Shown: positions 42,673-43,880 of the stretch, piece after piece
Layout: each line of letters begins with the position of its first letter
How positions within the stretch are numbered: position 1 is the first letter of the stretch
Assembly (NCBI GenBank): GCA_023389595.1
Contig: JAEWEF010000008.1
Span: 1-61,655 of the forward strand
Source: Fusobacteriota bacterium
Lineage (GTDB): Bacteria > Fusobacteriota > Fusobacteriia > Fusobacteriales > Fusobacteriaceae
Length of the DNA: 61,655 bases
Reading direction: 5' to 3'
Made by a program: the position numbers and the translations under genes
The notes under the pieces: model-generated
What the model saw: only the letters and a program-made list of their open reading frames with translations
Database searches by the model: none
Told to the model about the DNA's origin: nothing

Positions 42673-43005
42673 ATGAAAAAATTATACAGTTTTATTTGTA
42701 TACTATTTATTGTATTTTCTATTAATAGTTTTTTATCAAATCATAAAGTTATTACTATAAAATTCAACAGCGAACCTTCTATAACAGAATATGTAAAGAA
42801 GAGCGAAAAAGTATTTTGCTTTAATAGAGAACATTATGATAAAAATATATATTTTATAGATAGAGATAGAGATACTCTACCGTCTACACTTATCTCTGCA
42901 ATAACAATTTTTATAAATAATTTTTCTTTATATAACTTTGATGTAAAAAATATAACACCAAATAAAAATATACATTGTATATCAAAAGTCGTGCTCAGAC
43001 TATGA
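42673..43005 (+). CDS. Hypothetical protein with N-terminal signal/TM segment; candidate regulatory leader protein
   Basis: GAGGT RBS; MKK+hydrophobic N-terminus; 110 aa ending ISKVVLRL. Confidence 0.65.
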   Translation: MKKLYSFICILFIVFSINSFLSNHKVITIKFNSEPSITEYVKKSEKVFCFNREHYDKNIYFIDRDRDTLPSTLISAITIFINNFSLYNFDVKNITPNKNIHCISKVVLRL

Positions 43006-43010
43006 CATTT

Positions 43011-43040
43011 CCTTCTATTATCGATATTAATAATAGGAGG
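43011..43040 (+). promoter_or_regulatory. Anti-Shine-Dalgarno hairpin
   Basis: CCUUCUAUUA (43011-43020) pairs over 10 bp (one G-U) with UAAUAGGAGG (43031-43040), which contains the SD of the 43047 ORF. Confidence 0.7.
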
Positions 43041-43046
43041 TAAAAC

Positions 43047-43190
43047 ATGAAATTCGAGGTAGAGAAATTTATAAAAAATATCGACTATGACTACGAACAC
43101 GATAACACTTTCGCTATATTAATCATACTAGGAAGTTATTTTTCGTTAATTGCAGTCATGATTATAAAAATTATTTCTTTGTTATTCTAG
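43047..43190 (+). CDS. Unannotated 47-aa single-pass membrane protein
   Basis: AGGAGG 6 nt before ATG; MKFEVEKFIKNIDYDYEHDNTFAILIILGSYFSLIAVMIIKIISLLF; its TAG overlaps the AGGAG SD of the next gene. Confidence 0.75.
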   Translation: MKFEVEKFIKNIDYDYEHDNTFAILIILGSYFSLIAVMIIKIISLLF

Positions 43191-43199
43191 GAGAATATA

Positions 43200-43880
43200 A
43201 TGAAAATATTTGCAATAGTATTTTTTCTATTTATTTCTTATATTTCAAACTCGCTTGATATAAATAACTTTCCTAAACTTCCTAGAGATGTTCCACAGTA
43301 CACTAATATAAATAATTTAGATTATACTCAAGAAGAATTAAATAATATATATGATTCTTTAAAGCTCAATCAATATATCTCTAACGACGCTTTTATAAGT
43401 GGAGTAGAAGGAATGTCCAAAATTAATATAAGAAAAAATAACATTATTGCTATAGTGGATTTTACTAAACCTTCTACTCAAGAAAGAATGTGTATATTGG
43501 ATTTAGACAATAAAGAATTATTAATTACATCTTATGTTGCTCATGGCAAAGGATCTGGAAATATTTATCCTACTGAATTTTCTAACACAAATGGATCAAA
43601 TAAAAGTTGTATAGGATTTTTTATAACTGGATCTAATTATGATGGTATTAACGGAAATTCATTGTCAATATACGGATTAGAAAAAGGAAAAAATGATAAA
43701 TCGAGAGAAAGAGATATAGTGATTCACGGAGCTGATTATGCTGAAGAAGAATTTATTAAAAAATACTCTAGACTTGGAAGAAGTTGGGGATGTTTTGCAG
43801 TTCCACGTATAAAAAATGATATTATAATAGACGCAATAAAAAATGGATCGATAATGTATGCACATTATGAAAAAAAATAA
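43200..43880 (+). CDS. Murein L,D-transpeptidase catalytic domain protein (YkuD_2-type), exported
   Basis: Signal peptide; IVDFTKPS..R, VAHGKGSG, FSN..GS, IVIHGADY and GRSWGC His/Cys motif. Confidence 0.88.
   Translation: MKIFAIVFFLFISYISNSLDINNFPKLPRDVPQYTNINNLDYTQEELNNIYDSLKLNQYISNDAFISGVEGMSKINIRKNNIIAIVDFTKPSTQERMCILDLDNKELLITSYVAHGKGSGNIYPTEFSNTNGSNKSCIGFFITGSNYDGINGNSLSIYGLEKGKNDKSRERDIVIHGADYAEEEFIKKYSRLGRSWGCFAVPRIKNDIIIDAIKNGSIMYAHYEKK

Follow-up and report, generated by a model that had tools for sequence, protein, structure and literature searches.

An orphan gene pair in the EIIA-L,D-transpeptidase junction of a fusobacterial genome and its probable translational coupling through a Shine-Dalgarno-locking hairpin

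The window analysed here is the whole 61,655-nucleotide (nt) stretch of contig JAEWEF010000008.1 from a Fusobacteriota bacterium of the family Fusobacteriaceae (assembly GCA_023389595.1), and within it we focus on a 557-nt segment in the conserved operon junction between a gene for the glucose-type EIIA component of the phosphotransferase system (PTS) and a gene for an L,D-transpeptidase. The segment carries two orphan open reading frames (ORFs), of 110 and 47 amino acids (aa), each with a Shine-Dalgarno (SD) sequence of its own, and the SD of the second one is closed into an 11-bp hairpin just past the stop codon of the first. In our estimate, it is rather probable that the two form a coupled pair, with the 47-aa ORF translated through RNA-unfolding coupling to the 110-aa ORF. 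Both ORFs can be read directly, as can the hairpin with its rarity, the restriction of the segment to this lineage and the geometry of its elements; the co-transcription, the translation of both ORFs and the coupling itself are what we infer.

The hairpin pairs positions 43011-43021 with 43030-43040 through 11 base pairs, one of them G-U, around an 8-nt loop, has a folding energy of -11.4 kcal/mol and is retained in the centroid structure. The original prediction, made by a model from the letters alone, had described a 10-bp hairpin that starts 5 nt after the TGA (43003-43005) of the 110-aa ORF and sequesters the whole AGGAGG of the next gene, and this description is accurate except for the stem length, which is 11 bp. 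In particular, the AGGAGG, lying 6 nt 5' of the ATG of the 47-aa ORF at 43047, is contained entirely in the stem, whose six outermost pairs join it to an anti-SD sequence, CCUUCU, and are followed by five A-U pairs. Since the anti-SD arm resides in the non-coding 41-nt spacer between the ORFs, its complementarity to the SD is no by-product of coding. A weak 4-bp extension between UAUG at 43001-43004, in the last sense codon and the stop, and CAUG at 43046-43049 appears in every modelled structure and would bring the start codon of the 47-aa ORF weakly into the lock.

How unusual is such a lock? As a reference, we took from this genome (1.18 Mb, 28.3 % GC) the 639 ORFs that run to 100 codons or more and whose SD matches at 5 of 6 positions. 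The pairing probability of the SD in question, 0.999, is above that of every one of them (mean 0.43; 1.3 % exceed 0.95), and the contiguous stem running inward from the last SD base has 11 pairs here and at most 5 in the 639 genes. What is more, a stem of 11 from the last SD base never arose in 200,000 shuffled real upstream sequences, in which stems of at least 8 occurred at a frequency of 1.35e-4. On the two strands of the genome together, 868 stems reach 11 bp or more, and just three loci among them carry GGAGG in the 3' arm, the other two being palindromes. Taken in its entirety, the 91-nt context has a fold that is not better than those of its shuffles (z = -1.14); the hairpin, on the other hand, is far beyond chance and unique in this genome.

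The two other loci are perfect palindromes, AAATACCTCC...GGAGGTATTT, at G000:C16:12283-12307 and G000:C83:957-984 (G000 denoting this genome); they have the look of two-way terminators, and no other long stem in this genome, that of our target aside, carries GGAGG in one of its arms. At another place, G000:C72 near 13870-13921 (+), the SD at a gene start is almost fully paired (0.99), with CUUCUUUUUCUUUUAAAGGAGAAG coming right after a terminator-like hairpin, and this site may be a second SD lock in the same genome.

A variant strain is represented by an independent 3346-nt contig, which spans 42400-43900 with 14 substitutions (0.9 % divergence) and keeps all ORFs intact; the 14 substitutions were assigned by hand to the reference sequence and checked against the protein variants. 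None of them falls between 42958 and 43090, an absence that is uninformative on the hairpin, as only about one change would be expected there.

To relate the hairpin to the upstream ribosome we used a footprint model, in which the bases under the ribosome are forced to be unpaired and its 3' edge is shifted stepwise. SD pairing remains at 0.996-0.998 for edges of 43005-43009, has fallen to 0.84 at 43011 and drops to 0.41-0.44 at 43013-43016, i.e. to the genome average of 0.43. If a ribosome is taken to cover approximately 13-16 nt beyond the first P-site base, positions 43013-43016 would be reached only when the P site holds the last sense codon and the A site the stop codon, while a ribosome standing on the three rare codons 106-108 would reach 43009 at most and leave the SD closed. 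In other words, the model implies that normal termination suffices to expose the AGGAGG and that the rare-codon run cannot do so directly. The earlier expectation that a pausing ribosome would melt the 5' arm is consequently upheld in this model for a pause at the last sense codon or the stop, and fails for a pause on codons 106-108. What the footprint model supports is translational coupling, originally put forward as the null model, with access to the next SD governed by a ribosome that has come to the end of the 110-aa ORF.

The mechanism that we propose is the following. A ribosome arriving at the stop of the 110-aa ORF would cover or unwind the anti-SD and thereby free the AGGAGG, whereupon a second ribosome would initiate there or the same one would re-initiate, such that synthesis of the 47-aa peptide would require that of the 110-aa protein and roughly match it in amount. 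The transpeptidase, with an open SD of its own, would at most be boosted by ribosomes terminating on the overlapping TAG. This corresponds to the RNA-unfolding model as laid out in the excerpted text of PMC12548453, where in rpmI-rplT (+52 nt) the upstream ribosome prevents an inhibitory structure and the downstream ribosome-binding site (RBS) is left unblocked.

That said, a number of points weigh against such coupling. First, at -11.4 kcal/mol the hairpin may refold faster than a 30S subunit binds, and a pause may be needed for it to be opened efficiently. Second, according to the same excerpted text, coupling declines with the distance between stop and start, and in one library screen structure just past the upstream stop correlated negatively with coupling (PMC12548453). 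Third, the coding quality of both ORFs is poor: their codon-usage scores are 0.108 (110-aa) and 0.099 (47-aa) per codon, compared with 0.57 +/- 0.17-0.21 for real genes, both scores rank in the bottom 1-2 % of real-gene windows, and among wrong-frame ORFs of comparable length 49 % and 23 %, respectively, equal or surpass them. Fourth, when the segment is shuffled with its dinucleotides preserved, 9 % of the shuffles contain an ORF of 47 codons or more. Finally, the variant strain differs in the 110-aa ORF by three non-synonymous changes (A76T, S85F, L86S) and one synonymous change, which gives no sign of purifying selection.

The last three of these points lead one to ask whether the ORFs are simply young or non-functional. 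On that account the segment would be fast-evolving filler or a proto-gene region, the hairpin a constitutive lock or an element of mRNA processing or stability, and any translation of the 110-aa ORF non-regulatory. We judge this explanation unlikely, if by no means far-fetched. The codon scores, resembling those of spurious ORFs, and the 3:1 ratio speak in its favor, as do the orphan status of the ORFs at the species level, the GC content of the segment (22.8 %, vs 28.3 % for the genome), the very long branch on which this genome sits and the absence of confidence in the structure prediction, in which single-sequence AlphaFold2 gave an uninformative model (predicted local distance difference, pLDDT, of 42; predicted template-modelling score, pTM, of 0.26). 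However, a 110-codon ORF is not expected by chance even in DNA this rich in A and T: none of that length or longer appeared in 5000 of the above shuffles, the longest having 99 codons. Likewise, three well-spaced SDs are present, one of them a perfect AGGAGG, an anti-SD exactly 5 nt past a stop is hard to explain without upstream translation, and the 47-aa ORF, whose sequence is identical on three contigs, shows no non-synonymous and two synonymous differences in the variant strain.

As far as relatives are concerned, homologs of the 110-aa ORF were sought in 40 related genomes and in 130 genomes of the same family, as well as among 5.8 billion proteins and, with HMMER, 1.84 billion representatives, and only the protein itself and its strain variants came back. 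Its 90 % cluster consists of three variants that are 97-99 % identical, with no homolog below 97 % identity found; the ORF is intact in all three, its C-terminus is invariant, and so are 107 of the 110 positions. One match in the related genome G004 (E 0.002, with two in-frame stops) runs antisense inside a gene for a 214-aa membrane protein and was set aside as chance. For the 47-aa ORF, nothing credible was found in the 40 relatives at E<=1 (best 0.008, with stops), and only itself among the 5.8 billion proteins. Judging by these comparisons, both ORFs are species-level orphans.

The junction into which they are set, in contrast, is conserved. Orthologs of the transpeptidase, 41-52 % identical, are present in 17 of the 21 same-genus genomes, the remaining four (G003, G008, G014 and G019) having only a paralog type at E<=1e-10, and in all 17 the EIIA gene ends just 5' of the transpeptidase start, with the 557-nt module missing. 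The gap measures 12-23 nt in the ten loci whose coordinates were read (L004-L012 and L020), and the other seven have the same junction sequence. All 17 junctions feature a weak GAAGTG-like SD with a pairing probability of 0.17-0.76 and no occluding hairpin. Since EIIA directly abuts the transpeptidase in these relatives, the module is, by gene order and sequence, lineage-specific.

Where did the segment come from? It is single-copy, i.e. it is not repeated elsewhere in its own genome. In a test for relics, tblastn of 160 ORF products from the relatives' loci against the segment gave nothing better than E 0.01, in what is a tiny database, and a phmmer comparison with every ORF of the same genome yielded a single match, at E 0.0035. 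In EIIA as well as in the transpeptidase, the branch leading to this genome is very long (1.64 and 1.1-1.3 changes per site) and forms part of an unresolved three-way split; the segment may have been gained here or lost in the others. In two outgroup genera, a different gene precedes the transpeptidase. The nearest named relatives of the EIIA are from Fusobacterium sp. and Ilyobacter assemblies (metagenome-assembled genomes), at 46-51 % identity, and the best such locus has a different EIIA context. A metagenome scan with the transpeptidase returned one locus, at 26 % identity, and none closer. An apparent joint 42935/43024 in sequencing run X1 has sides of only 23 nt, stems from another contig and was disregarded.

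Turning to the proteins themselves, the 110-aa ORF had been described as having an N-terminal export signal, no recognisable domain and a terminal ISKVVLRL-stop, and sequence, hydropathy and Pfam all agree with this. It contains a single hydrophobic segment, residues 3-23, behind a KK pair, with 19-residue Kyte-Doolittle windows above 1.6 starting at residues 3-5, such that the product is predicted to be exported or membrane-anchored. The last 20 residues are VKNITPNKNIHCISKVVLRL, and the last proline is residue 96. Pfam assigns it no family at E<=0.1. A match to the N-terminal part of PorU in NCBIfam (E 0.011; 15.9 bits, the cut-off being 40) is limited to the signal region and, like a PADLOC match to 'E2' (E 0.0024 over 39 residues), is below threshold, while the nearest ESM Atlas clusters are unnamed Bacteroidota hypotheticals, the DUF2946-labelled rows at 0.91-0.92 being flagged as often due to chance. 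The 47-aa product has an acidic head of 22 residues and a hydrophobic C-terminal end and is, by hydropathy, a putative tail-anchored membrane peptide.

The last gene is clearer. The transpeptidase matches PF13645 with 202.6 bits against a cut-off of 27, over profile positions 3-169 of 169 and with residues 1-57 preceding the match, and carries IHGADY and SWGCFAV, of which we take H176 and C198 to be catalytic from what is known of the YkuD fold. A solved structural relative was not found by sequence. The statement that the stop of the gated 47-aa ORF overlaps the SD of an L,D-transpeptidase gene proved correct in both its parts. That SD, however, with a pairing probability of 0.44-0.49, is no more paired than the genome mean of 0.43, and the hairpin would therefore gate the 47-aa ORF and not the cell-wall enzyme. 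In the variant strain, the transpeptidase shows three non-synonymous and four synonymous changes, and the covered part of EIIA none and one, respectively; the three replacements in the enzyme (I50M, D63E and S67R, at 43349-43400) lie in or next to its N-terminal non-catalytic part and the four synonymous changes further on. The 47-aa ORF and the transpeptidase gene share a reading frame, being separated by the TAG and three codons, and the hydrophobic end of the former directly precedes the hydrophobic N-terminus of the latter. The shared frame may be due to chance (1 in 3) or may be a trace of the segment's origin.

Does the ribosome do more than terminate at the end of the 110-aa ORF? The original prediction saw here a new arrest-peptide sensor of cell-wall genes: the nascent chain, or slow termination, would bring the ribosome to a halt at the stop or beside it, the halt would be lifted once the N-terminal signal is exported, and the dwell time would set the output of the 47-aa ORF and perhaps of the transpeptidase. 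The evidence leaves this reading without support and very improbable, and we would give no greater weight to its relative, in which a newborn, species-specific leader combines an exported chain, rare codons and a TGA-C stop to make the ribosome dwell at the stop, with envelope or secretion stress setting the time for which the lock is open and thereby tuning a membrane peptide and the L,D-transpeptidase that follows it. The excerpted text of PMC10987492 characterizes monitoring substrates as (i) unannotated upstream ORFs (uORFs) of a sec or yidC gene with (ii) an N-terminal secretion signal or transmembrane segment, (iii) a C-terminus whose sequence is conserved across homologs and (iv) a spacer of more than 30 residues between signal and motif. 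On the second and fourth counts the 110-aa ORF compares well, as its hydrophobic segment is followed by approximately 85 residues (23 to 110) up to the C-terminus. On the first, it has no annotated function, but the genes downstream are the 47-aa orphan and a YkuD_2 transpeptidase, and since these are not export factors, no feedback of the kind seen with SecM, MifM and VemP is evident. On the third, the above searches gave no homologs that could reveal a conserved C-terminus or hairpin, and the module itself is absent from all 17 same-genus junctions. None of the RAPP-like, LPPP, NSP/NAP-stop, DGMK-stop, KYxIW, GIRAGP or PPP motifs, as collected from PMC10987492 and the CutF preprint (bioRxiv 10.1101/2025.02.05.636593), occurs in the 110-aa ORF, in agreement with the original remark that a RAPP/RAGP-type motif is lacking. 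The name stem 'Fusobacteri' has no occurrence in the main text of that paper, whose supplementary uORF lists might name candidates from Fusobacteriota.

The position of the hairpin, predicted to be disrupted by a ribosome that has arrived at the stop or the sense codon before it and by no other, is precisely the one that a monitoring substrate would require, but in the footprint model ordinary termination is enough for opening it, a ribosome paused on codons 106-108 leaves the SD closed, and the SD of the transpeptidase is open in any case. What keeps a pause-assisted version alive, if as a low-probability reading, is the end of the ORF. Namely, codons 106-108 had been called unusually GC-ending, and rightly so: GTC and GTG account for 4.3 % and 6.5 % of Val codons and CTC for 1.2 % of Leu codons in this genome. 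In 473 long genes with 187,820 positions, three consecutive rare codons are found 15 times, and at no time within the last 10 codons of a gene. The 110-aa ORF has six rare codons in total, three of them in this run, which lies 3-5 codons 5' of the stop. The ORF closes with TGA and has a C in the next position; of the 639 genes, 55 end in TGA and three in TGAC, and TGA-C is a slow termination signal in E. coli. As for the stem of GUCGUG with UAUGAC, it does form in the minimum free energy (MFE) structure, with four Watson-Crick and two G-U pairs, but is weak and absent from the centroid, and the GC-rich patch at 42986-43000 does not recur as a motif. Finally, CutF (bioRxiv 10.1101/2025.02.05.636593, excerpted text) illustrates how a periplasmic enzyme outside the Sec system can be controlled by a leader with a signal peptide in combination with a stall and a stem-loop at the SD.

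Two further explanations concern the hairpin in its own right. The 47-aa peptide could be harmful to the membrane and be gated like a toxin, with its SD sequestered, its translation dependent on a leader and its expression possibly under antisense control, a likeness to hok/mok. The peptide is indeed small and hydrophobic, the lock is very tight and the modelled geometry would make the 47-aa ORF dependent on the upstream one, but the gene is single-copy and sits inside an operon with its stop overlapping the next gene's SD. Rfam gave no match at gathering score in 41900-44100 (E<=1), only five weak ones in the EIIA gene or at the terminator, PADLOC gave none above threshold, and promoter-like sites on both strands together (19) do not exceed the number expected from shuffles (18.1). 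To our knowledge, a C-terminal membrane segment behind an acidic head is also not the usual layout of a type I toxin, and altogether we find a toxin very improbable. An RNA thermometer, i.e. an A-U-rich hairpin that melts at host temperature and frees the SD, would be in keeping with an SD paired to a pyrimidine-rich arm and with five A-U pairs out of eleven, but the modelled SD pairing remains at or above 0.988 from 25 to 60 C, and we reject this explanation as having next to no probability.

The coupled pair that we favor is embedded in a row of four ORFs, all on the + strand (Table 1). A promoter-like site in front of EIIA, one of a class no more frequent than in shuffles, is the likely start of a four-gene transcript as judged from its pattern and position, and no terminator-like sites were seen between the four ORFs (42151-43880), such that the four are presumably co-transcribed. 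SDs stand 6-7 nt 5' of the ATG in all three last ORFs (GAGG, AGGAGG and AGGAG, respectively), and the hexamer 42660-42665, which contains the GAGG of the 110-aa ORF, has a pairing probability of 0.40.

Table 1. Coordinates of the features at the EIIA-L,D-transpeptidase junction, in positions of the window.
Feature	Position	Strand	Basis or remark
Promoter-like site, TTGAAA-17-TATAAT with TG	42052..42080	+	11/12 matches; top site in 41900-44100; pattern match only
PTS EIIA (glucose-type) gene, conserved upstream neighbour	42151..42642	+	PF00358, E 4.4e-46
Lineage-specific segment, 557 nt, 22.8 % GC, gap between EIIA and transpeptidase	42643..43199	+	12-23-nt gap in relatives
GAGG Shine-Dalgarno of the 110-aa ORF, 7 nt 5' of ATG	42662..42665	+	read from sequence
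Orphan 110-aa ORF, N-terminal hydrophobic segment (signal peptide or signal anchor)	42673..43005	+	translation, hydropathy
Run of three rare codons, GTC GTG CTC, codons 106-108	42988..42996	+	codon usage
Weak stem GUCGUG/UAUGAC across the stop codon	42988..43006	+	MFE structure, absent from centroid
SD-occluding hairpin, anti-SD CCUUCU 43011-43016 with AGGAGG 43035-43040	43011..43040	+	folding
Orphan 47-aa ORF, acidic N-terminal 22 residues, C-terminal membrane-type segment	43047..43190	+	translation, hydropathy
TAG stop of the 47-aa ORF (43188-43190) overlapping the transpeptidase AGGAG (43189-43193)	43188..43193	+	read from sequence
YkuD_2-type L,D-transpeptidase gene, 226 aa, N-terminal hydrophobic segment	43200..43880	+	PF13645, E 3.9e-60
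Terminator-like hairpin, 15 pairs, between the transpeptidase gene and a convergent 498-aa gene	43886..43918	.	listed on - strand; T run also 3' on +

The surroundings of the junction differ from those in relatives as well. There, a gene for a META-domain lipoprotein (PF03724) precedes EIIA on the same strand; here, its position is taken by a divergent gene of the endonuclease/exonuclease/phosphatase family at 41141-41971 (-), and the META gene is found on another contig, at G000:C75:9489-9911. Taken together with the inserted segment, this means that the neighborhood is rearranged on both sides of EIIA. At 1.18 Mb (85 % estimated completeness) and 28.3 % GC, compared with 1.7-2.6 Mb in the 21 same-genus species, the genome looks like that of a reduced, fast-evolving lineage.

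What do these results mean? The most likely mechanism is, we believe with reasonable though far from complete confidence, ordinary translational coupling, i.e. a known kind of system in a new, lineage-specific orphan pair. If so, the locus would provide a clean natural example of two orphan genes that sit within a conserved operon junction and are tied to the translation of the operon through an SD lock of great strength, which lies at a distance of exactly one ribosome footprint past the upstream stop, and as such it would be useful both for studies of how new genes come to be expressed and for studies of RNA-unfolding coupling. If, on the other hand, the ribosome were to stall here, signal-dependent arrest sensors would be extended beyond Sec, YidC and copper targets to genes of cell-wall remodelling, with an arrest sequence unlike any described and in the Fusobacteriaceae; on the present evidence, the chance of this is small.

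It is instructive to compare the locus with known systems. The YkuD_2 genes of the same genus likewise encode a PF13645 member behind the same EIIA gene, but they do so without intervening ORFs or hairpin. The monitoring substrates SecM-secA, MifM-yidC2, VemP-secDF2 and the ApdA/ApdP/RQH uORFs, as presented in the excerpted text of PMC10987492, resemble the 110-aa ORF in being small and family-less, with an N-terminal signal, a spacer longer than 30 aa and, immediately downstream, a stem-loop that sequesters the SD; as compared with SecM, MifM and VemP, however, there is no sec or yidC gene downstream here, no known arrest motif and a geometry that does not require stalling. CutF-cutO of Rhodobacter capsulatus, again according to the excerpted text (10.1101/2025.02.05.636593), also combines a secreted leader, an RBS-shielding stem-loop and the gene of a periplasmic enzyme as a non-Sec target, but the 110-aa ORF differs from CutF in having no proline-rich stalling motif (no proline past residue 96) and no Pfam match to DUF2946 at E<=0.1. 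The closest parallels are the coupling systems, namely E. coli rpmI-rplT, phage MS2 coat-lysis and f1 genes VII-IX, where, in the excerpted account of PMC12548453, the downstream RBS is likewise silenced by local structure and the upstream ORF ends beside or within this structure, as is the case here. Unlike in those systems, both partners here are species-specific orphans, in a junction that is directly coupled in relatives, and their coupling is put forward as probable from the arrangement of the locus. Finally, the spacing between stop and start, +41 nt here and +52 nt in rpmI-rplT, would in both cases leave room for a second ribosome while the first one holds the structure open.

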